15,177 nt of DNA from Thermodesulfobacteriota bacterium (lineage in GTDB: Bacteria > Desulfobacterota_D > UBA1144), in the NCBI GenBank assembly GCA_029246845.1, contig JAQWMJ010000054.1:1-15177 (forward strand). The letters are read 5' to 3'. The position numbers were made by a program, and so were the translations under genes. Positions 2 through 11,595 of the stretch are shown piece by piece. Within the stretch, counting starts at the first letter, position 1; every line of letters begins with the position of its first letter. The notes beneath the pieces are model-generated. The model searched no databases and was not told the origin of the DNA. It saw only the letters and a program-made list of their open reading frames with translations.

Positions 2-1560
2 GGAACTCTTACACTCTCTGGAACTAATACCTATACTGGCACCACTACTATAAATAATGGAACCCTTACAGTAAGTGGAGCACTATCTGATAGTAGTTCG
101 TTAAGTGTTGCCTCTGGAAAAACGTATACCCTTAGTGCGAACGACACTGTTGCTTCAATTGCAGGTGCAGGAACTATTGCAACTGGTGGATATACTCTTA
201 CGGCTGGAGGTGGCGGTAGTAGTACAACATTTTCAGGTGTGATATCAGGAAGTGGTGGTCTTACAAAAGCAGGAAGCGGAACTCTTACACTCTCTGGAAC
301 TAATACCTATACTGGTGCTACAACTATAAGTGCAGGAGCCTTGACAGTAAGTGGAGCACTATCTGATAGCACTGCAGTAAGTGTTACTTCTGGAAAAACT
401 TATACTCTTGGTGCGAATGATACTGTTAGTTCAATCTCAGGTGCAGGAAATATAGTAAATGGTGGATATACTCTAACAGCCGGCAATTCTAGTAACCAGA
501 CATTTTCAGGTGTGATATCAGGAAGTGGTGGTCTTACAAAAGCAGGAAGTGGAACTCTTACACTCTCAGGAACTAATACCCATACTGGTACCACTAGTGT
601 AAGTGCAGGGACTCTTACAGTAAGTGGATCTCTATCTGATAGTAGTTCGTTAAGTGTTTCCTCTGGAGCAACTTATACTCTTGGTGCGAATGATACTTTT
701 GCTTCGATTGCAGGTTCAGGAACTATTGCAACTGGTGGATACACTCTAACGATGGGTGACGGTAATGATCATACATTTGCAGGTGTAATATCAGGAACCG
801 GTGGTCTTACAAAACAAGGAGGAGGAAAACTCACATTGTCAGGGACTAATACTTATACAGGTGCTACGACTTTAAATACAGGCATTTTAAGTGTAACGGG
901 ATCTCTATCTGACAGCACTGCATTTACTGGTGCTGCTGGATCAACTTATGCAATGTATGTAGCTGATGAAATTGGTTCAATTGCAGGTGGAGGAAGTATA
1001 GCAAATGGTGGCTATGGTCTTACGGTTGGAGGAGATAACAGTAGTACGACCTACTCAGGTGTAATAAGTGGTACTGGTGGTCTTACAAAAGCAGGAAGTG
1101 GAACTCTTACATTAACTGGAGTTAATACTTATACTGGCGGTACGACTATAGAGGGTGGCTCTGTTGGTGTTGCTACTGCCTCTGGCGTTGACACTAATCC
1201 ATTTGTAGATACTACTTCAATGTCTATTTCTTCTGGAGCAAGTTTTATCTACAATTTAAGTACCAATCAAACATTGTCAGGTGTAATAAGTGGAGCTGGT
1301 GGTGTCGCACACACAGGAAGCGGGACTCTTACGCTCTCCGGAACTAATACCTATACAGGCGATACAACTATAAGCGAAGGTGACATAAATGTTACAGGCA
1401 AATTAGGCAATGGTAGTTATAGTGGGGACATGACAATAGCGTCTGGTTCCCAATTTATCTATTCATCCGATAGTGATCAAACATTATCAGGCACTATATC
1501 AGGTGCTGGAGTTCTGGTAAATCACAAATCTGGCAGTGGCACATTGACTTTATCAGGTAC
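2..1560 (+). repeat. Intragenic tandem repeats: GxLTL(S/T)G anchors at 2, 278, 551, 824, 1100, 1322 and 1538 (periods 92, 91, 91, 92, 74, 72 aa)
   Basis: Near-identical DNA blocks such as ggtggtcttacaaaagcaggaag(c/t)ggaactcttaca recur at 273-276-nt spacing. The last two units are shorter and more diverged. Confidence 0.9.
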
Positions 1561-1810
1561 TGTTTCGTATACCGGAAGTCAGGAGCTATCTTTGGCTGCA
1601 GGCCAATCAATTCAATTAGTTGAAAATAATAAACCTATAAATAATGATAGTTTGTCCAAAATAGATTTGCTGAATAATATCGATGAAGGATTTGGCAATT
1701 ATGCTCACTTTGACATAGAAATAAATCCTTTTAACGAAATAAAAGAGCAATTAATTGTATTCGATAATAAAGAAAATAATGACCTAACAAGTTTATTGGT
1801 GGAAAAATAA
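2..1810 (+). CDS. 5'-truncated large exoprotein/adhesin with autotransporter-associated beta-strand repeats (PATR-like); probable TpsA-type passenger
   Basis: The frame is open from base 2 (GTLTLSGTNTYTGTTTINNG...), so the GTG at 239 is not the true start. It has repeated ISGSGGLTKAGSGTLTLSGTNTYTGxTTI motifs and ends in a ~65-aa acidic tail with no translocator barrel. A TpsB gene lies downstream on the same strand. Confidence 0.85.
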   Translation, partial: GTLTLSGTNTYTGTTTINNGTLTVSGALSDSSSLSVASGKTYTLSANDTVASIAGAGTIATGGYTLTAGGGGSSTTFSGVISGSGGLTKAGSGTLTLSGTNTYTGATTISAGALTVSGALSDSTAVSVTSGKTYTLGANDTVSSISGAGNIVNGGYTLTAGNSSNQTFSGVISGSGGLTKAGSGTLTLSGTNTHTGTTSVSAGTLTVSGSLSDSSSLSVSSGATYTLGANDTFASIAGSGTIATGGYTLTMGDGNDHTFAGVISGTGGLTKQGGGKLTLSGTNTYTGATTLNTGILSVTGSLSDSTAFTGAAGSTYAMYVADEIGSIAGGGSIANGGYGLTVGGDNSSTTYSGVISGTGGLTKAGSGTLTLTGVNTYTGGTTIEGGSVGVATASGVDTNPFVDTTSMSISSGASFIYNLSTNQTLSGVISGAGGVAHTGSGTLTLSGTNTYTGDTTISEGDINVTGKLGNGSYSGDMTIASGSQFIYSSDSDQTLSGTISGAGVLVNHKSGSGTLTLSGTVSYTGSQELSLAAGQSIQLVENNKPINNDSLSKIDLLNNIDEGFGNYAHFDIEINPFNEIKEQLIVFDNKENNDLTSLLVEK

Positions 1811-1880
1811 TGGAAGCGTGGGAATTCAATAGTTGTTTCAAATTTGGTGTAATGATAATTGAAGACGGTGGGAGTCTGTC

Positions 1881-2537
1881 ATGATTAGATTTAAGTTTTT
1901 TATTTTCTTTTGTTTTATAATTTTAAACTTAGCTAGTCTATCGTATTCACAAAATGAAACCGACAATGTTCACAATCTCCTTTCTGAGTCAATAAAAATG
2001 ATTGACAATAGGATGTATTCTGATGCAGAAAGGTCAATAAATTCTATAATTGAACTCTCCCCGGACTTTAAACCAGCAATTTACTACAGAGCTTTATCTA
2101 GAATGCATTTAAAAAAAATAGATTTAGCCGAAAAAGACTTTCTTTCTGTCCTGAATAGTGGGGAAAGCTTTCCTGATTTGTTTTTCTATCTTGGTTTAGT
2201 AAGCGAAATGCAAGAAAAAAATACTGATGCAATTAATTATTATTCAAAAGCCCTAACTCTTGATCCAATCAATTCAAGATATCACAACAATAGAGGCATG
2301 ATTTATGCCAAGAATGGAGAATTTAATCTTGCGTTTGAAGATGTAAATAAAGCGATTGCGATTGATCCTCAATATGCTAGAGCCTATTTCAATAGGGCTC
2401 TATATTTCTATTACATAAAAAAAGACAAAAAACTAGCAATAAATGATATGAAAAAATCGAAAAATTTTTACTCGCTTCAAAAGCGACTTGCTGAATCAAA
2501 TTTAGCACAGGAGGCGTTGTCCAAATGGATGGATTAA
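1881..2537 (+). CDS. Exported tetratricopeptide-repeat (TPR) protein
   Basis: N-terminal signal peptide (MIRFKFFIFFCFIILNLASLSYS) and TPR consensus segments (YYSKALTLDPINSRYHNNRGMIY; VNKAIAIDPQYARAYFNRA). Confidence 0.9.
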   Translation: MIRFKFFIFFCFIILNLASLSYSQNETDNVHNLLSESIKMIDNRMYSDAERSINSIIELSPDFKPAIYYRALSRMHLKKIDLAEKDFLSVLNSGESFPDLFFYLGLVSEMQEKNTDAINYYSKALTLDPINSRYHNNRGMIYAKNGEFNLAFEDVNKAIAIDPQYARAYFNRALYFYYIKKDKKLAINDMKKSKNFYSLQKRLAESNLAQEALSKWMD

Positions 2538-4906
2538 GAAAAGTATTAATTGCCATTTTTATCTTGTTTTTTGTTAGTTGCCTTGGTGGAGGTGGCGAAA
2601 AAAAAGCAGCTGGCAGTTCTGGGAGTGGAGGAGGATCAACGGCCTGTTCTTATCGAGGAGATGATTATTCTGGTTGTTATCCAGCTCAATATGCAACATC
2701 TACCTATGAAACAGCGGAGTATAACAACGCCTATGGATTGGGCGATACGAGTGCATCAACTGCGTACTCACGAGAACTTACAGGCTCCGGTGTAAAAGTT
2801 GGAATATTTGATACAGGAATAGATACGACTCATAGTGAATTTAGTGGAAAAACTATTACCGGTTACAACTACGAATCAAGTAATACTTCGGTGACTGACG
2901 GCAATGGCCATGGGACACATGTTGCTGGAATAATTGCAGCGAAGAAAGATGGTGTGGGTATGCACGGCGTCGCTTATGGAGTTACACATATTTATAGCTA
3001 TGACATATTTAACGACAGTGGAACTTTTCAGGGTGCATATAATACAACAATTCCTAGTGCAATTTCAAAAGCTATAACAGCTGGTGTTAAGGTTATTAAT
3101 AATAGTTGGGGTACAACTACAGCCATAAATGCTCGCTCAAAAAGCTCTTGGGAGTCGTCATATAGTACCTCAATTACATCCTACGAATCGCTTGCTACTA
3201 ATAATATTATCAGTGTCTGGGCGGCAGGAAATCAAGGAGCAACTCAAGTTAGTTTTGAGGCGGGTATTCCACATTATTGGACCGGTACCGCGGACCATTG
3301 GATTGCGGTAGTCGCCATTGATACTGATGGAAAAGAGACATCATATACGAATCGGTGTGGGGTGGCGGCCGCCTGGTGTATATCAGCACCTGGCCATGCA
3401 ATTTATAGTGTTGAGGATGGTGGAACATATAATAATAAGAATGGAACCTCTCAGGCAGCGCCACATGTAGCTGGAGCAATCGCAATACTAATAGAAACTT
3501 TTCCAAATCTTACTGCAAAGCAGGTAGTAAGTAGACTCCTTGCTACAGCTTCAACAAGTGGTTTGACAGGGTACTATGGAGAATCCTACTCTGAGGCAAT
3601 TTTTGGCGTAGGCAAAATGGACTTGGATAAAGCGACGAAACCAATAGCTGTCCTCGGACTTTCAGTTGCCGGTACAAATACATCTAATTCAACAAGCTAT
3701 ACCCTTAACTCAACAAAGCTGAGGCTTTCCAAGGTTTTTGGTCAAAATAGAGTAGTCAATAGAATAATTCAAAGAAAAACTAATTTTTCCAAACAAGCTG
3801 ATAAAACGATGATGGCGAGCTTTGATTCATATGATAATGCAATATTTTATGTAAACATGCTCTCTCTCACTAGCGAATCGATTTATCAACCTTTTGATCT
3901 TGATTCTCTTTTATTTAGAGATGTCCAAGAGCAAAAAATATTTGATATTGGAAATTTAAAGATGTATGGAATTTTGCACCTTAATGATTCTGATAAATAT
4001 TCTCCTCAATCTCCCTTTAAAAATATAAGAGCTGATCTTCATGTTAATAAAAATCTTGAATTAAAATACAATTATTCAGAGGCACGAAGATACTATCTTT
4101 TATCACGAAACTCTGAAAATTTTATCAAATCTCCCGTCATATATGACGCTTTTCATAATCCTTACATTGGATTGAACGGAGAATCGTTTAGTTTGGAAAG
4201 CATATATACCCTAAACGGAAATTCAGATATCTCTTTTTTTTATGAATATGAGAAATATTACGAAGATTTAGAATCTAGCCTTGATGACAGAAGAGGTTTT
4301 TCATCAATAAAAGGAATCAAAATTAATCTGGCATCGAATGAGAAGAACAAGTTTTCTTTTTTCTTCGGTAGAATGGATGAGGAGGGTTCTTTTCTAGGAT
4401 CCACAACTTCAGGTGCGTTTAGATTAAAAGATAGTACGAAAACTAATATTTTTGGATCAGCTTTCCAAACATATTTTAATGAATCAACAAAATTATTTTT
4501 GACAAGTTTCTATGGAAATACAAAAGTTGATCCACATCCAGAATCCTTATTTAGTGATTTCGAAGCGATTAATTCTTTTTCCTGGAGCCTAGGTTTGTTG
4601 CACGATAAGTTTATTAGTCATAACTCTTCTATAGGTGCAATAGTGCATCAACCTATTAGAGCAGAGAGCGGGTCTTTTTCACTTGAGATTCCATTGTACT
4701 CTGATTACTTAGGTAATATTTATTCGTATAATCAGAAATACGAACTAGAGCCGAATGGAAGAGAAATCAATTATGAGCTATTTTACGAAAAAGATTTAAG
4801 TAACTATAAAATGAGATTTGCATCTTTATTTATTAAAGACGGTGGTCATCTGGCATATGGTGATTTGGAAAAAGTCTTTACGATAGAACTTAAAAGTAAT
4901 TTTTAA
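2525..4906 (+). CDS. Lipoprotein S8 (subtilisin-family) serine protease with C-terminal putative outer-membrane beta-barrel (autotransporter-like)
   Basis: Lipobox FFVSC followed by a Gly/Ser linker. Catalytic motifs FDTG, HGTHVAG, AAGN and GTSQAAPHVAG are present. The C-terminal ~400 aa is rich in amphipathic aromatic strands and ends in Phe. Confidence 0.9.
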   Translation: MDGLRKVLIAIFILFFVSCLGGGGEKKAAGSSGSGGGSTACSYRGDDYSGCYPAQYATSTYETAEYNNAYGLGDTSASTAYSRELTGSGVKVGIFDTGIDTTHSEFSGKTITGYNYESSNTSVTDGNGHGTHVAGIIAAKKDGVGMHGVAYGVTHIYSYDIFNDSGTFQGAYNTTIPSAISKAITAGVKVINNSWGTTTAINARSKSSWESSYSTSITSYESLATNNIISVWAAGNQGATQVSFEAGIPHYWTGTADHWIAVVAIDTDGKETSYTNRCGVAAAWCISAPGHAIYSVEDGGTYNNKNGTSQAAPHVAGAIAILIETFPNLTAKQVVSRLLATASTSGLTGYYGESYSEAIFGVGKMDLDKATKPIAVLGLSVAGTNTSNSTSYTLNSTKLRLSKVFGQNRVVNRIIQRKTNFSKQADKTMMASFDSYDNAIFYVNMLSLTSESIYQPFDLDSLLFRDVQEQKIFDIGNLKMYGILHLNDSDKYSPQSPFKNIRADLHVNKNLELKYNYSEARRYYLLSRNSENFIKSPVIYDAFHNPYIGLNGESFSLESIYTLNGNSDISFFYEYEKYYEDLESSLDDRRGFSSIKGIKINLASNEKNKFSFFFGRMDEEGSFLGSTTSGAFRLKDSTKTNIFGSAFQTYFNESTKLFLTSFYGNTKVDPHPESLFSDFEAINSFSWSLGLLHDKFISHNSSIGAIVHQPIRAESGSFSLEIPLYSDYLGNIYSYNQKYELEPNGREINYELFYEKDLSNYKMRFASLFIKDGGHLAYGDLEKVFTIELKSNF

Positions 4907-4907
4907 A

Positions 4908-5336
4908 ATGAGATTTCTTACCCTATTTTTTTTTTCGATTATTTTATTAATCTCTTGTTCTAAAAGTGAAAAGATTTCTATAATACTAAAAGATTCTCAA
5001 TGTGGCACCGTAGCTCAAAAACAACATATTGTTGTAGATGGTGATGAAGAATGGGAGGCTCTTTATAAAAATCTTTTACAAACAAACTCACTTAACAACT
5101 TAAGTGATCAAGAACTAGGAGTTTTTATCTTTCTTGGAGAAAGATCTTCAAGTGGTTATTCACTTGATTTTATAGAGTCTTATACAACTGACAAAGAATT
5201 CATTATTGTCGTGTACGAAATAGAGCCAAAAGAATTAGATCCTGTATTAACTGTAATGACCTATCCTTGTATAGCACTAAAAATTCCTAAAACAGATAAA
5301 GAAATAAAAATTATATTTAAAGAGTCTAGGGAATGA
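4908..5336 (+). CDS. Lipoprotein with protease complex subunit PrcB C-terminal-like domain
   Basis: Lipobox LLISC. The pattern FIFLGERSSSGYSL...IIVVYEIEP...VLTVMTYPCIALKIPK fits the PrcB_C family as I recall it. It starts 1 nt after the protease stop. Confidence 0.75.
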   Translation: MRFLTLFFFSIILLISCSKSEKISIILKDSQCGTVAQKQHIVVDGDEEWEALYKNLLQTNSLNNLSDQELGVFIFLGERSSSGYSLDFIESYTTDKEFIIVVYEIEPKELDPVLTVMTYPCIALKIPKTDKEIKIIFKESRE

Positions 5337-5342
5337 TAAGTC

Positions 5343-7016
5343 ATGTTTGCTAAAATCTTAATATTTCTATTAATTACACTGACAATTAGTCAATTTGCGC
5401 ATTCAATGGATGATTCCGGGATCCTTGAAAAGACATTACCCTTCAAAGAGAGGAAACAGACGGGAACATTTAGGAATGTGCCCAGAATAGATGAAGAAAT
5501 AAAAACTAAAGACACGGGTCCTCAAGTGGTTATTGATAAGATTACAATAAAAGGAAACTCTTTAATTAAAGATGAAGAAATATTTTTGATTACCAATAAA
5601 TATTTAGAAAAAAGTCTTAATCTTCAAAATCTTAATGCCATTATAAATGAAATTGGTTTTTATTACAGAAAAAATGGATACTGGGCACGAGCAATACTCC
5701 CCGAGCAAGATATAGAGAATGGACAGTTATTGATTGAAATTTATGAAGGAATTTTGGGGAGTGTAGAGATAGAAAAAAAAGATAAAAATATCCGTTTTTC
5801 AGAAAAGAGATCTAAAGCATTTATTCTATATGGACAAAAGAAAAGAACTCCTATCAACATCCTTAAGCTTGAAAACGCAGTAAAAGAGCTAAGCAATGTG
5901 CCTGGTATTGAATCATCAATTGTATTAAAGGAAGGAGAAAATACTAGCGAGACGGATGTAGTAATAAAATTATCAAACACTCCTATGATAAATGGACTAA
6001 TAAAATTTGATAATCATGGAACAAGATCAACGGGTAGGAGTAGAGGGATTTTCTCAGTTAATCTGGACGGCCTATTCAATATTGGCGATAGATTTTTATT
6101 CCAATATCTACAAGTACGCGATATAAAATATAAAGCATATGGACTAAGCCTTCCCATTCTTAATGATGGCACAAAGATTAAATATATGTACACAAATATG
6201 AATTACGAGTTGGGATATCCTTTTAAGTCTCTAGATGCTGAAGGAAAATCTAATACCAAGAAATTCTCGATATCTAAACCTTTAATCTTTTTAAATAATA
6301 TCAATGTAAGATTTGATTACGATTTTTTAATTAGTGAATATTCAAATGAATCTTTAGGAGCTACAATATCAGATAAAAGTATTAAATCATCTGTATTATC
6401 TTCAATTTTAACTAATTCTGATTCTTTTATGGGAGAGGGAACTACTTGGGGTATTTTGAGCTTTACAAATGGCAAGCTGGATCTTTCGGGGCAACAGTCA
6501 AATCTTAATTCTGATTCTCTAGGTGCTAAAACTAATGGACATTTTAATAAAATATTTTCGTCTTTCACTCGTATACAAAGATTAGGTAGAAGAACTACTT
6601 TTTGGCTAATGACGGATTTTCAATTCTCATTTAAAAATCTAGATTCTAGCCAAAAACTATCGCTTGGAGGTGGAAACGGTATAAGAGCATATCCTGTATC
6701 GGAAGCAAATGGTGATAATGCAATTATTATAAAATCTGAGATACATCATTATTTAAGCAAAGGTATTGAAGGTTTAATCTTTTTTGATTATGGTCGCGTA
6801 AAACTTTACAAGAACACTTGGACTCCAACTACAAATAATTATTCTCTCAAAGGCGCTGGTATCGGGATAATCTCAAGATCTTTTTATGATGCTACATTAA
6901 AAACTTATTTGGCTAGAAAGGTAGGGTCGAATAAAGGGGCGGATACAAATGGTAATGATAACGACGGAACAGATAATACCTTTACTTTTTGGATCGAAGC
7001 TTTTAAGAATTTTTAG
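5343..7016 (+). CDS. ShlB/FhaC/HecB family two-partner secretion transporter (TpsB)
   Basis: Signal peptide, POTRA-type segment (ITIKGNSLI...YYRKNGYWARAILPEQDIENGQLLIEIYEG), DNHGTRSTG barrel start, loop-6 motif LGGGNGIRAY (VRGY variant), FFDYG and terminal Phe. Confidence 0.92.
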   Translation: MFAKILIFLLITLTISQFAHSMDDSGILEKTLPFKERKQTGTFRNVPRIDEEIKTKDTGPQVVIDKITIKGNSLIKDEEIFLITNKYLEKSLNLQNLNAIINEIGFYYRKNGYWARAILPEQDIENGQLLIEIYEGILGSVEIEKKDKNIRFSEKRSKAFILYGQKKRTPINILKLENAVKELSNVPGIESSIVLKEGENTSETDVVIKLSNTPMINGLIKFDNHGTRSTGRSRGIFSVNLDGLFNIGDRFLFQYLQVRDIKYKAYGLSLPILNDGTKIKYMYTNMNYELGYPFKSLDAEGKSNTKKFSISKPLIFLNNINVRFDYDFLISEYSNESLGATISDKSIKSSVLSSILTNSDSFMGEGTTWGILSFTNGKLDLSGQQSNLNSDSLGAKTNGHFNKIFSSFTRIQRLGRRTTFWLMTDFQFSFKNLDSSQKLSLGGGNGIRAYPVSEANGDNAIIIKSEIHHYLSKGIEGLIFFDYGRVKLYKNTWTPTTNNYSLKGAGIGIISRSFYDATLKTYLARKVGSNKGADTNGNDNDGTDNTFTFWIEAFKNF

Positions 7017-8690: not shown

Positions 8691-8732
8691 CTAACAAATT
8701 TGAATTTAATGATTAATAAATGGAGAAAATAT

Positions 8733-9764
8733 ATGAATATTATTAATAAAGTCTTATTAACTTTAGTTCTACTTTTAGGGATGAACATGAACTTACTTGC
8801 TGGTGGAGATCCTTCAGAAATAGTTATGAAAACTAGAGCAGATTCCCATGCTCCGATTTCTATTATGGGTGACCATACACATAAGGAAGGACAAGTAATG
8901 TTTTCGTATAGATATATGACAATGGGTATGGATGGATACCAATCAGGCTCTTCTTCTTCGAACTATACAAAGGCTAGAACTAAACCATTAGGCGGCAATT
9001 ATATGACAGTGCCAGAAGAGATGACTATGAATATGCACATGATAGGTGCCATGTATGCTCCATCAGATGATATAACTTTGATGATAATGGGTAGCTATTT
9101 AGATAGTGAAATGAAAGTTAAAAAACATTCTAATAAAAAGAAAAAAACTTTAGAATCTAGTGGAAATGGAGATACTAAAGTATCTATACTTAAAAATCTG
9201 GCTCATAATGATAACGCCAAACTTCATGCTTCTTTAGGTCTTAGTTTGCCAACAGGGTCAATTTCAAAAAAGGATATTATGTTTGGATCAAAGGAAGAGA
9301 CCTTAGGTTACAATATGCAATTGGGATCTGGAACCTATGACGCCTTACCTGGATTGACTTACGTATATTTTGAAGATAATTATTCTTACGGCACTCAAAT
9401 ATCAAGTGTTTTAAGGATTGGTAAGAACTCTAAAGACTATGCTCTAGGAAATATATATAAAAGTAATATTTGGTTTGTTATACCTTTTAATGACAAACAA
9501 ACCTCCTTTTCTATTGCTTCACAATTTAAATTTCAAGGTAAAATTAAAGGGAACCATAAAGACATTAAGACTATAATGAGTTTTGCTCAAGATAGAGATT
9601 CCTCTGGAAGTAAAAGAATTGATATTTCCATAGGTGCTAATCATATTTTCCCTAATAAAATAAGGGCTAGTGTTGAGTATATAATGCCAATATATAATGA
9701 TGTTAACTCTGTTCAGCTTGATTCAGAAAATGCTCTAATGTTTGGCTTAGGATTCGCATACTAA
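8733..9764 (+). CDS. Met/His-rich outer-membrane beta-barrel 'transporter' (MetA-pathway/phenol-degradation-like porin family)
   Basis: GGAGA RBS before ATG 8733, signal peptide, motifs RADSHAPISIMGDHTHKEG, GNGDTKV, LGLSLPTG and MQLGSGTYD, and an aromatic C-terminus (GLGFAY). Confidence 0.75.
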   Translation: MNIINKVLLTLVLLLGMNMNLLAGGDPSEIVMKTRADSHAPISIMGDHTHKEGQVMFSYRYMTMGMDGYQSGSSSSNYTKARTKPLGGNYMTVPEEMTMNMHMIGAMYAPSDDITLMIMGSYLDSEMKVKKHSNKKKKTLESSGNGDTKVSILKNLAHNDNAKLHASLGLSLPTGSISKKDIMFGSKEETLGYNMQLGSGTYDALPGLTYVYFEDNYSYGTQISSVLRIGKNSKDYALGNIYKSNIWFVIPFNDKQTSFSIASQFKFQGKIKGNHKDIKTIMSFAQDRDSSGSKRIDISIGANHIFPNKIRASVEYIMPIYNDVNSVQLDSENALMFGLGFAY

Positions 9765-9826
9765 TTTATCAATTTGTTAATATTTGTAAAATGTCCAGTA
9801 CTGAGTGTTCTGTTCTATAATTATCC

Positions 9827-9855
9827 TTGACAATTTTTTGTATAAGTGATATTAA
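9827..9855 (+). promoter_or_regulatory. Putative sigma70 promoter
   Basis: Perfect TTGACA (9827-9832), 17-nt spacer, then TG-n-TATTAA (9847-9855; the -10 is imperfect). The predicted start near 9862 lies just before the pseudoknot array. Confidence 0.5.
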
Positions 9856-9863
9856 TTCTATAT

Positions 9864-9990
9864 ACCATAGATCATGGTTTAAAAGATCCTCATGGAACAT
9901 GAGTGAAAAGTTCTCCATAAGTCATGGGAACAAGACTCGCATAGAACATGCGTTAAAAGTTCAAATATTTCTCCAAAGGGGGTATTTGAA
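9864..9990 (+). ncRNA. Putative structured RNA leader: four tandem H-type pseudoknots plus an RBS-sequestering hairpin
   Basis: Units ACCAT-A-GATC-ATGGT-TTAAAA-GATC / CTCAT-G-GAAC-ATGAG-TGAAAA-GTTC / TCCAT-A-AGTC-ATGGG-AACAA-GACT / CGCAT-A-GAAC-ATGCG-TTAAAA-GTTC, with compensatory changes in both stems. A hairpin TTCAAATA...TATTTGAA follows at 9960-9990. Confidence 0.65.
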
Positions 9991-9991
9991 T

Positions 9992-10213
9992 ATGAAACTT
10001 TTGTTAAAGAGGCAGGTTAGAGTCAATGTAGCCAGCAAGGCTAATCTAGTTAATAAAGCTAGGGTGGCTAATATGCTTAAGGTCGCAACTGATTCAAGAA
10101 AACCAGCAAATTCAAAATTTATTCATCTTTCTGCTATAAAAGCTTACCAGCGTCAAAAAGCTTGGAAGTTAAATGTTAGAAAGATCTCTAAAATTCAGTT
10201 TGCTTTAGTTTAA
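9992..10213 (+). CDS. Hypothetical small highly basic protein (73 aa)
   Basis: AAGGGGG RBS 9 nt before ATG 9992. It has 18 K/R and a single acidic residue, and is followed by a terminator-like hairpin. I recognise no family. Confidence 0.5.
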   Translation: MKLLLKRQVRVNVASKANLVNKARVANMLKVATDSRKPANSKFIHLSAIKAYQRQKAWKLNVRKISKIQFALV

Positions 10214-10231
10214 TATAAGCATGGATTATGT

Positions 10232-10275
10232 GCAGGGGGTTTTAACTTTGAAATTTCCTGCCATTTGAATTTTAT
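10232..10275 (+). terminator. Probable terminator-like hairpin
   Basis: GCAGGGGGTTTTA...TGAAATTTCCTGC (10232-10261) pairs with several G-U wobbles on the + strand and is followed by a T-rich tract. Confidence 0.5.
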
Positions 10276-10311
10276 ATTTACTTTCTTCACACTAGCTTTT
10301 ACATTTGTATC

Positions 10312-11595
10312 ATGAGAAATGAACTTAAGGTCCTATTAGCCAATGTATCTTTAATTTCTTCAATTGCGACACTAGTATATGTTTACTTTAAAAATTTCCT
10401 ACCAAAATCAAAGATAAGATTGGAATATGTACTTTTCTCCCTTCCGCTTACTTGGGCTATTATTTCAAATATTTTATATATTAATGGTTGGGCAAGAGAC
10501 AGTCTTTGGGACATTAACGTAGTTTATTGTGCCGACTTAGCATATTCTCTTGGGGCTAGCCCTCAAACCGATTGGTTTGTTAATGCATCATGTCAGGAGT
10601 CTATTCCATTACAGTTTACATACCTAAAACTACTATTAGATATAGTTCCCTTTTCACTTTTTGAATATGACTTCTTTGAAAAAGTTTGGGTGATATTTCT
10701 TGGACTATCCGCATTAGGTTATGGATTTATATCAAAGAAGCTATTTGAATTAGAAATAAATTATTTTTTCATTTTGGTATTTATTCTAATAGCTTATCAG
10801 GGATCAAATATTGTATCTCTTCAGGCTGGGAACATAGCCGTACCAATCTACTTACTAGTATTTTTTGGAATTCTTTTATTAAAGCATGACAAGTACCAGA
10901 TAATTTTCTTCCCTATAGTCGCCTTTGCGACTTTCTTAAAATTTCATTTGGCCTTATTCCTCCTTATACCATTTATGGTTCAGAAATTTTTCAATTTCAA
11001 AGGATATGTTTTATTCTCCATAACTCTCTCTTCTTTATTTGGATTAAATTATTTGCTACATGGACCATTTATTAATGAATGGCTTGTTAATCTGAAGTAT
11101 GTCGATATGGGCTTAGCACCGATCTTTGCGGAAATGGATTTCTTAAAATCTTTATGGACCACCAATGGTGAGGCTGCAATGTCCAAGGTTCAGTTTAATG
11201 CTTTATGTAAAATTTTTATATTCCCCTTCTTCTTTTTAAATCTAATTTTCTTTAGAAAGTATTTGATTAATAAAGTCTCAGATAAAGAATTCTTCAATGT
11301 ACTCTTGATACTATCAACATTTGTTTTTGTTTTAGTACTACCAAGACTTAAAGTCTATGATTTTTTTATTATATCTTGTGTCTCAATAAAAATTTATTTG
11401 GACTCAATTGATACTATAGTTAGTAAAGATTTTTTACTAAAAATGATATCAATTTTAATTATTATTTTATTTTATTTGTCATCTATCTACTGGAGACCTC
11501 AATGGGACCTTACAAATATTAGCTATTATTATGTATTATCTATTTACTTTCTATATCAAGCTATGGTTATTAGAAAGATAAAGGTAAAATATTAA
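10312..11595 (+). CDS. Polytopic membrane protein, GT-C fold glycosyltransferase family 87 (DUF2029)-like
   Basis: About 10 or more hydrophobic segments, an early periplasmic loop with Asp (WDINVVY), FTY, SLQAGNI and the FATFLKF Lys motif typical of GT87. Confidence 0.6.
   Translation: MRNELKVLLANVSLISSIATLVYVYFKNFLPKSKIRLEYVLFSLPLTWAIISNILYINGWARDSLWDINVVYCADLAYSLGASPQTDWFVNASCQESIPLQFTYLKLLLDIVPFSLFEYDFFEKVWVIFLGLSALGYGFISKKLFELEINYFFILVFILIAYQGSNIVSLQAGNIAVPIYLLVFFGILLLKHDKYQIIFFPIVAFATFLKFHLALFLLIPFMVQKFFNFKGYVLFSITLSSLFGLNYLLHGPFINEWLVNLKYVDMGLAPIFAEMDFLKSLWTTNGEAAMSKVQFNALCKIFIFPFFFLNLIFFRKYLINKVSDKEFFNVLLILSTFVFVLVLPRLKVYDFFIISCVSIKIYLDSIDTIVSKDFLLKMISILIIILFYLSSIYWRPQWDLTNISYYYVLSIYFLYQAMVIRKIKVKY

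Follow-up and report, generated by a model that had tools for sequence, protein, structure and literature searches.

What does an array of four small RNA pseudoknots do in front of a gene for a 73-residue, very basic protein in a Thermodesulfobacteriota bacterium? The cassette that raises this question occupies positions 9827–10275 of contig JAQWMJ010000054.1, and the window analyzed here is that whole contig, 15,177 nucleotides (nt) long (contig C3 of genome G000, which comprises 1.04 Mb in 54 contigs, is 91% complete and has 32.6% G+C). From 5′ to 3′, the cassette consists of a promoter, the four pseudoknots, a hairpin that buries the Shine–Dalgarno (SD) sequence, the 73-codon open reading frame (ORF) and a terminator-like hairpin; the array, the ORF (12 Lys, 6 Arg and a single Asp) and the terminal hairpin had been picked out in an earlier note made from the sequence alone, and all are present as it described them. 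In our best reading, for which we consider the balance of probability about even, the array belongs to an undescribed, nitrogen-linked, riboswitch-like element that switches translation of the ORF ON. As a part of that reading, and with the same evenly divided confidence, the cassette would be one short mRNA whose 5′ leader is a structured RNA element hitherto undescribed.

Positions 9865–9962 hold four contiguous H-type pseudoknots of 24–25 nt, built to one plan. A first stem (S1) of 4–5 bp with a CAU/AUG core closes a 5-nt loop, the last 4 nt of which pair with the tail of the unit to form a second stem (S2); the remaining loop nucleotide is L1, there is no L2, and an A-rich linker (L3), 7 nt long in unit 1, 6 nt in units 2 and 4 and 5 nt in unit 3, precedes the tail. 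The loop/tail pairs of units 1–4 are GAUC/GAUC, GAAC/GUUC, AGUC/GACU and GAAC/GUUC, respectively. The features at the center of the analysis are:

9865–9888, + strand: pseudoknot 1 (S1 9865–9868/9874–9877, L1 9869, S2 9870–9873/9885–9888, A-rich L3 9878–9884)
9889–9913, + strand: pseudoknot 2 (S1 9889–9893/9899–9903, L1 9894, S2 9895–9898/9910–9913, L3 9904–9909)
9914–9937, + strand: pseudoknot 3 (S1 9914–9918/9924–9928, L1 9919, S2 9920–9923/9934–9937, L3 9929–9933)
9938–9962, + strand: pseudoknot 4 (S1 9938–9942/9948–9952, L1 9943, S2 9944–9947/9959–9962, L3 9953–9958)
9959–9991, + strand: SD-sequestering hairpin of 14 bp (9959–9972 with 9978–9991; SD GGGGG at 9978–9982), its end adjoining the AUG
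9992–10213, + strand: gene for the 73-residue, very basic protein (K12, R6, D1, E0), with its ATG at 9992

A strict descriptor (S1 of 4 bp, L1 of 1 nt, S2 of 4 bp, L3 of 6–7 nt, Watson–Crick pairs only) gives 213 matches on both strands of the 1.04-Mb genome, among which the sole cluster of four is this array; its 11-nt core, CATNRRWCATG, appears in four consecutive copies here and at only seven places elsewhere in the genome, always singly. A cluster of three descriptor matches on contig C36, in AT-rich low-complexity DNA beside a tRNA, was dropped. BLASTN recovers the array in 14 of the 19 genomes of the family, and in 13 aligned arrays (alignment A4) all 523 of 523 pair cells hold standard pairs, compared with 29–42% when the partners are slid by 1–3 columns. 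Six compensatory pairs are present in these 13 arrays, five in S2 of units 1–3 and one in the SD hairpin. Among genera, S2 of pseudoknot 1 appears as GAUC/GAUC, GGUC/GACC and AGUC/GACU, that of pseudoknot 2 as GAAC/GUUC, GAGC/GCUC, GGGC/GCCC and GUAC/GUAC (with G, U, C or A at L1), and that of pseudoknot 3 as AGUC/GACU and UGUC/GGCA. The loop geometry is compatible with the fold, L1 of 0–1 nt crossing a 4-bp S2 and L3 of 5–7 nt crossing a 4–5-bp S1. With crossing helices, covariation and fitting loop lengths, the units are H-type pseudoknots. The arrays of G000 and G001 differ at 3 of 99 nt (97% identical), all in L1 or early L3, and the synonymous divergence (dS) of the ORF in the same pair is ~1.4; as the array is far more conserved than an ORF with dS > 1, selection acts on the RNA itself.

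Odd units (NCCAU...AUGG) alternate with even units (CKCAU...AUGMG) in the unit-pair alignment (A5), and the array is, judging from this alternation, a two-unit module duplicated here to four units. The S1 core CAU/AUG, the junction C–G pair and the AAA of L3 hardly vary in any lineage and are concentrated at the helical junction; S2 can otherwise covary, and the S1 core never covaries in 79 modules. The units of a further alignment (A6) were chosen by complementarity, so that its 99.9% pairing is circular, and it was used only for position variability.

The distribution of the module was traced with a covariance model (R1) of the unit pair, with the S2 helices as structure. R1 gives a double match (four units) in 14 of 19 family genomes and a single two-unit module in all five genomes of genus g4 and both of genus g3, that is, at seven sites outside small-ORF arrays. 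All four of those inspected (L021, L038, L045 and L046) lie 40–50 nt 5′ of the start of gltB (glutamate synthase large subunit); the other three are G013:C7, G018:C6 and G012:C24, the gltB placement resting on the four inspected. The only module in G000 is that of the window, and its gltB leader carries none. In a class-wide R1 search, 15 of 120 genomes match, all within this family. An exact IUPAC pattern, run on one genome per species, finds 69 loci: 20 in this lineage, 27 in uncultured marine Alphaproteobacteria and 22 that were rejected as chance, being from unrelated, mostly G+C-rich genomes and showing no S2 complementarity. The alphaproteobacterial variant (ACCAU-CCAC-AUGGU ... CGCAU-A-GUAC-AUGCG ...) is present in 29 of 42 genomes of one order, usually once per genome. 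By these matches the module is shared by two lineages at least, this family and the alphaproteobacterial order, which are distant from each other.

A looser pattern applied to metagenome contigs gives at least 120 loci and at least 81 distinct modules. With six S2 positions left free in the pattern, 70 of the 81 modules among the matches listed are complementary at six of six and the other 11 at five of six, and no row of the slid controls of these 81 reaches such complementarity. Two units are present in 49, three in 14 and four in 14 of 77 distinct arrays (again among the matches listed), abutting with 0–1 nt between them, and 16 IMG/VR contigs carry the same cassettes. The genes that follow these 77 arrays are:

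small-ORF family A (the family of the window): 20 of 77 distinct arrays
small-ORF family B (~40 residues, ...SENRWGYK...): 20 of 77
small-ORF family C (~33 residues, ...WILARFSQLR...): 9 of 77
gltB, in two lineages: 9 of 77
Gcw_chp outer-membrane porin-like protein (PF09694): 10 of 77
ammonium transporter amt: 1 of 77
unclassified or truncated: 8 of 77

Comparison of family A with C and with B by hhalign revealed no relation (probability < 1%). A glutamine-I riboswitch-like sequence lies within a few nt 3′ of the array in all 11 Gcw_chp and amt leaders, as well as in the unclassified leader L205, and Rfam RF01739 confirms it at 61 and 59.5 bits in both loci examined for it (L186 and L164). The association of the module with gltB, with amt and porin genes (beside a glutamine-I riboswitch) and with other small ORFs is the basis on which we infer a nitrogen-status signal, and the unrelated small-ORF products, together with a near-invariant core across distant lineages, imply a partner common to all.

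The arrangement of these leaders varies. At L186 (692–821) and, on the reverse strand at the equivalent place, at L164, three units are followed by a 4-nt linker and then by RF01739, upstream of amt and Gcw_chp porin-like genes; at L205, two units precede two tandem glutamine-I aptamers. In the literature passages searched, we found no description of such a composite of array and glutamine-I leader. In the gltB leaders (L020, L021, L038, L046, L107, L119 and others), a conserved A(A/U)(G/U)UGAGGUG ... (A)CCCCU element lies 1–50 nt 3′ of the module; its SD-like GUGAGG is complementary to the 5′ strand CCUCAU of unit 2, and the real start has little or no SD. The UGAGGUG...CCCCU element might be a standby site. 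In the class B cassettes (L058, L061, L066 and 23 other alphaproteobacterial loci), two units precede the ~40-residue ORF MLLTKNIIKFNN...SENRWGYK, at whose start a near-invariant GUAUG pairs with ACAUGC directly 3′ of the last pseudoknot.

In the window, folding assigns GUUC (9959–9962) to two structures: it is the 3′ strand of S2 (S2′) in pseudoknot 4, and it forms the base of the SD hairpin by pairing with GAAU (9988–9991), immediately 5′ of the AUG. RNAfold gives −12.1 kcal/mol for the segment from L3 of unit 4 to codon 6 and −5.1 kcal/mol with GUUC unavailable, and in ten family leaders the tail hairpin ranges from −10.0 to −13.8 kcal/mol and, with GUUC blocked, from −4.4 to −10.8 kcal/mol, all of these being minimum free energies (MFE) that ignore pseudoknot and triplex contributions. 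Across the 13 arrays nine inner pairs of the hairpin persist, and the changes among them are compensatory in one case and one-sided in three; in the leaders of genus g4, the outer pairs extend instead to the G of the AUG and into the codon after it. Minimal class A leaders (those of family A) from metagenomes with GACA or GAUA as S2′ have a correspondingly changed SD-side partner. Overlap, scored in distinct leaders as at least two S2′ nucleotides paired with a start-proximal partner, is present in 18 of 19 class A leaders (not in L173, where the finder missed a degenerate extra unit) and in 19 of 19 class B leaders, where the sequence is different (GUAC and AUGCUU, pairing over the start codon). 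Formation of the last pseudoknot excludes sequestration of the ribosome-binding site, and vice versa, in these two unrelated cassette types, and the leader is riboswitch-like in that the 3′ part of a structured domain overlaps the expression platform in exclusive pairings.

In the switch that we propose, the array would control translation of the small basic protein. With the pseudoknots folded and stabilized, the hairpin would lose its base, the ribosome-binding site would become accessible and translation would be ON; with the pseudoknots unfolded, the full 14-bp hairpin would form, the SD would be buried and translation would be OFF. The folding state would be set by an intracellular nitrogen-status signal, most likely a small molecule bound directly by the RNA; by analogy, glutamine would be the first guess, with 2-oxoglutarate, ammonium and polyamines as alternatives. 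In its most specific form, which is possible and which we offer only tentatively, the proposal is of a new riboswitch class that reads nitrogen status, binding glutamine or another nitrogen-status metabolite or ion cooperatively over two to four stacked 24-nt units and switching on small basic peptides that tune glutamine synthetase and glutamate synthase (GS/GOGAT).

Several results weigh against this proposal. Overlap was scored in only 1 of 7 gltB leaders and 2 of 9 class C leaders (MFE folding), and the folding energies themselves carry the omission stated above. Pseudoknot 4 is unvarying in the 13 arrays, so that covariation lends it no support by itself. The A-rich L3 and the variable L1 of 0–1 nt apart, the units have no conserved unpaired nucleotides, hence no obvious ligand pocket, and 24 nt is, to our knowledge, less than any known natural aptamer (preQ1-I has ~34 nt). 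A bona fide riboswitch separates the array from the start codon, 106–154 nt away, in the leaders of the porin and amt genes, where sensing need not be the array's task. For the module of this genome and that of the alphaproteobacterial order, the small ORF is the single target, so the nitrogen link rests on other lineages. Nitrogen control of the canonical kind is also encoded in the genome: the single glnA, on contig C8 (the one type I glutamine synthetase encoded), has directly upstream of it a gene whose product ends in a PII-like C-terminus, and a sigma-54-type −24/−12 promoter, TGGCAC-N5-TTGC(C/T)A, precedes each of the three amt genes (regions C6:16395–16800, C6:17867–18290 and C53:1199–1620). 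With a canonical Ntr-type system present, no riboswitch is needed to fill a regulatory gap.

Comparison with known RNA families places the array near several of them and inside none. At gathering scores, Rfam 15 finds nothing in the window; at E ≤ 10, positions 9700–10350 return only snoR07, SpF22 and C4, which are chance matches far below the cut-offs, with no match to RF01704 (Downstream-peptide, glutamine-II), and RF01739 (cut-off 35 bits) is found neither in the window nor in the genome nor in any of the 19 family genomes. PreQ1-I, SAM-II/SAM-V and guanidine-III are, like the units here, compact H-type pseudoknots with an A-rich loop in the stem 1 groove and a 3′ strand over the ribosome-binding region, and guanidine-II (mini-ykkC) has, as here, very small repeated units that could act together. 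The array gives no Rfam match to these small pseudoknot riboswitches; it has no S2–S1 loop and an L1 of only 0–1 nt, leaving their pockets without a counterpart, and unlike them it is phased, with two to four units and no linker.

The glutamine riboswitches act near the start codon, come in tandem copies and occur in marine bacteria, as does the array. RF01739 and RF01704 also share its gene associations, namely with glutamate synthase, with ammonium transporters (amt here having a porin-like neighbor) and with short basic ORFs outside any known family, according to the available passages of PMC2864571 and PMC6212724, which describe glutamine riboswitches that drive nitrogen genes and the small basic IF17 and IF17-like proteins. 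The cyanobacterial glutamine switch is a translational ON switch driving a small basic protein, as proposed here, and a type 1 glutamine aptamer physically adjoins the pseudoknot array in 12 distinct leaders among the matches listed. The likeness to RF01704 (5′ untranslated region (UTR) of short orphan ORFs, tandem copies, nitrogen genes) is used as working context only and not as membership; the published type 2 glutamine riboswitch (PMC6698751) has a ~60-nt fold of three coaxial helices, whereas the unit here has 24 nt. Tandem sensors in a single leader have a precedent in SAR11, where the passages available of PMC11508383 describe SAM-II/SAM-V.

No description of the motif was found in the passages searched of the literature, including PMC2704228, PMC3870248, PMC8632094 and PMC9004378, with supplements outside that scope; the 'gltD motif' of Negativicutes, as it is presented in the relevant part of PMC8632094, is a different candidate from other taxa and was set aside. 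A structured cis-regulatory leader is a known kind of element, and it is the architecture and the family that appear to be new. In SAR11, according to the part of PMC3870248 available, GlnA and GltBD protein levels change without a change in mRNA, and unexplained 'novel riboswitch-like structures' lie upstream of amt. If the array is a sensor, it would constitute an orphan riboswitch class whose modular architecture is unusual and provide a direct handle on post-transcriptional control of nitrogen assimilation in very abundant, genome-streamlined marine bacteria; as a new riboswitch class, its 24-nt units would be the smallest natural aptamer units known. The circuit proposed would then combine RNA and micropeptide in the nitrogen control of streamlined marine heterotrophs, in parallel with the cyanobacterial glutamine-riboswitch/IF17 circuit. 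Even a protein-binding or stabilizing array would be a widespread, strongly constrained RNA motif that is absent from Rfam 15.

The first alternative, which we regard as doubtful, is that the array is a binding platform for an RNA-binding protein that sets the balance between pseudoknot and hairpin, with, as a sub-case, the encoded helix binding its own leader (autoregulation or a small ribonucleoprotein). Small phased repeats in two to four copies are typical of protein-binding RNAs, and Weinberg et al. argued in this way for mini-ykkC (in the passage concerned of PMC2864571). The S1 core that never covaries suggests sequence-specific reading, the product is extremely basic and predicted to be one long helix, and array and family A ORF are found together in 14 family genomes. 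However, the mini-ykkC precedent cuts the other way, as that RNA was later shown to be a guanidine riboswitch, and a trans-acting protein would need to be conserved between this lineage and the Alphaproteobacteria, with no candidate gene linked to the arrays. Binding of the repeats by the encoded protein, as the earlier note had proposed, is disfavored: that note had named the occurrence of the array before unrelated genes as the finding that would speak against it, and the module does stand 5′ of gltB, Gcw_chp and amt and of two small-ORF families unrelated to family A. In addition, G007 (93% complete) has the gltB module and no detectable family A gene or four-unit array, and the RNA is far more conserved than the protein.

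We consider it unlikely that the array is instead a constitutive structural module, that is, a stacked pseudoknot–triplex rod that protects the 5′ end from decay, or a ribosome standby site or translation enhancer, with regulation coming from the promoters or the glutamine riboswitch. Such a role would suit arrays that begin a few nt from the predicted transcript start, contain two to four copies that abut closely enough for continuous stacking and offer no obvious pocket, and in 12 distinct leaders (among the matches listed) a complete glutamine-I riboswitch able to sense lies downstream. Consecutive small pseudoknots able to stack into a rod are described, in the passages available, for the upstream pseudoknot domain of tobacco mosaic virus, the 5′ UTR pseudoknots of foot-and-mouth disease virus and transfer-messenger RNA (tmRNA), and the tandem domains of viral UTRs are known structural or translation elements; these are unrelated in sequence and function and belong to eukaryotic-virus or tmRNA contexts. 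A generic stabilizer should not be confined to nitrogen-assimilation genes and small ORFs, nor occur once only in this genome, and a role for shape alone would lead one to expect covariation in S1 as in S2, whereas S1 is invariant. The position of the last S2′ strand within the SD/start-codon helix, reached by different sequences in the class A and class B leaders counted above, is the signature of a switch.

We think it very improbable that the whole ~400-nt transcript is non-coding and the ORF fortuitous, although the frame is short, belongs to no known family and has no usable look-alike in the ESM Atlas. The ratio of nonsynonymous to synonymous substitution rates (dN/dS), a check suggested in the earlier note, is 0.08–0.30 in the 18 pairs with dS > 0.05, which places the ORF under coding constraint. 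Indels are in frame (6 codons in G001; forms of 46–73 residues elsewhere), and the SD, the AUG and a C-terminal core are conserved down to metagenome forms of 29–35 residues, which consist of that core only (motif [AS][LIF][KR]x[YFH]Q[KR], residues ~41–70 of the 73-residue protein). A word-indexed search of a 5.8-billion-protein collection returned 13 clusters, none with a Pfam domain. A family A homologue, K/R-rich, 46–73 residues long and with at most four acidic residues, lies 3′ of each of 14 arrays, co-occurrence with the array being another check suggested in that note. By these signatures the 73-codon ORF is a real gene. The 128-codon frame from TTG 9827 was rejected as an artifact, two congeners having an in-frame stop inside the array (open frames of 101 and 103 residues).

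AlphaFold2, run on the alignment, predicts one long helix with a mean predicted local distance difference test (pLDDT) score of 74.7, rising to 82–94 over residues 41–70. Searches with the family A protein against Pfam (E ≤ 10), NCBIfam, PADLOC (E ≤ 0.1) and PDB profiles gave no meaningful match. Core residues 41–52 (...FIHLSAIKAYQR...) show a weak, short match to IHLLALKAYKK of human ELL2 (PDB 2e5n, E 0.05), and 5 of 15 family A members match Pfam ELL, with a best E of 0.0027; the likeness was taken as a coincidence of basic amphipathic helices. In being small, strongly basic and fast-evolving, the protein resembles IF7/IF17 of cyanobacteria and sP26 of Methanosarcina, another small GS-binding protein, and a nitrogen-sensing leader RNA controls how much IF17 is made (PMC6212724 and PMC6316151). 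Homology to IF17 was rejected, as none of the 15 family A members matches DUF4278 at E ≤ 10, and the family A protein has no NCBIfam match and no relevant PDB match; only a functional analogy is retained. The small product may modulate nitrogen assimilation in the manner of the GS-inactivating factors of cyanobacteria, and at least three families of conserved 29–73-residue proteins are flagged as candidate micro-regulators of nitrogen metabolism.

The resemblance to type III toxin–antitoxin loci remarked on in the earlier note, in which a processed RNA antitoxin would come from the repeats and the 73-residue protein would act as a miniature toxin, has a negligible probability: ToxI and CptI are likewise tandem pseudoknot-forming units 5′ of a protein gene, and the order of pseudoknotted repeats, hairpin and ORF is superficially the same, but those systems have near-identical repeats, a ToxN-like toxin and an intervening terminator, whereas here there is no match to ToxN, AbiQ or another defense family, Tandem Repeats Finder reports no repeat at a score ≥ 30 (beyond a common core the units diverge in S2), the hairpin separating array from ORF contains the SD and no U tract, with no + strand terminator listed there by the scanner, and the locus is chromosomal, its array conserved in 14 of 19 family genomes and its module also placed before housekeeping nitrogen genes.

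The remaining elements of the cassette are:

9827–9832, + strand: −35 box TTGACA (a reading of the sequence; TTGACA or TTGACT across four genomes of the genus)
9847–9855, + strand: extended −10 element TGaTATTAA (a reading of the sequence; TG at 9847–8)
10232–10275, + strand: intrinsic-terminator-like hairpin (10232–10261; 13 pairs, 4 of them G–C) with a T-rich tail

The two promoter hexamers, the second being TATTAA at 9850–9855, are separated by 17 nt, and the predicted transcript start at ~9862 lies 2–3 nt 5′ of pseudoknot 1; the promoter proposed in the earlier note is thus borne out, with the extended −10 TG in addition. It is absent from the list of the consensus scanner, which demands T at position 6 of the second hexamer, where the sequence here has A. 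In most other genera a TGnTATAAT-like box lies 7–10 nt 5′ of unit 1, and G+C-rich terminators occupy the equivalent place downstream. The cassette, with its promoter, structured leader, small basic gene and terminator, is as self-contained as the same note had claimed and moves as a unit, lying between two protein genes in this genus and flanked by tRNA genes in several other genera.

RNA-library contigs from three studies cover 9882–10215, 9899–10236 and 9903–10237, with none upstream; the missing cover over 9500–9870 and 10240–10310 in these three runs is no evidence of absence, and contigs cannot prove ends. A fourth run (oligo-dT) also covers 9788–10036, which includes the promoter region, and the next gene. 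The contigs fit a discrete transcript of array and ORF that ends near the terminator, and those of two studies, in stopping at 10236 and 10237, give a weak hint of the terminator itself. In the contig of run X12, sequencing-adapter letters lie directly 5′ of 9899, within unit 2, and might mark either a cDNA end at the structured array or an artifact.

The neighbors of the cassette in the window are unrelated to it: two proteins without a Pfam family, hisI, dsbB, znuABC and an autotransporter/subtilase/ShlB cluster. The flanking genes, 8700–9764 (354 residues) and 10312–11595 (427 residues), have no Pfam or PADLOC match, and both are conserved beside the cassette within the genus only. Further upstream, at 2–7016, a cluster of five genes encodes a PATR-repeat (autotransporter passenger-like) protein, a TPR protein, an S8 subtilase, a PrcB-like protein and a ShlB/FhaC-type two-partner secretion transporter.

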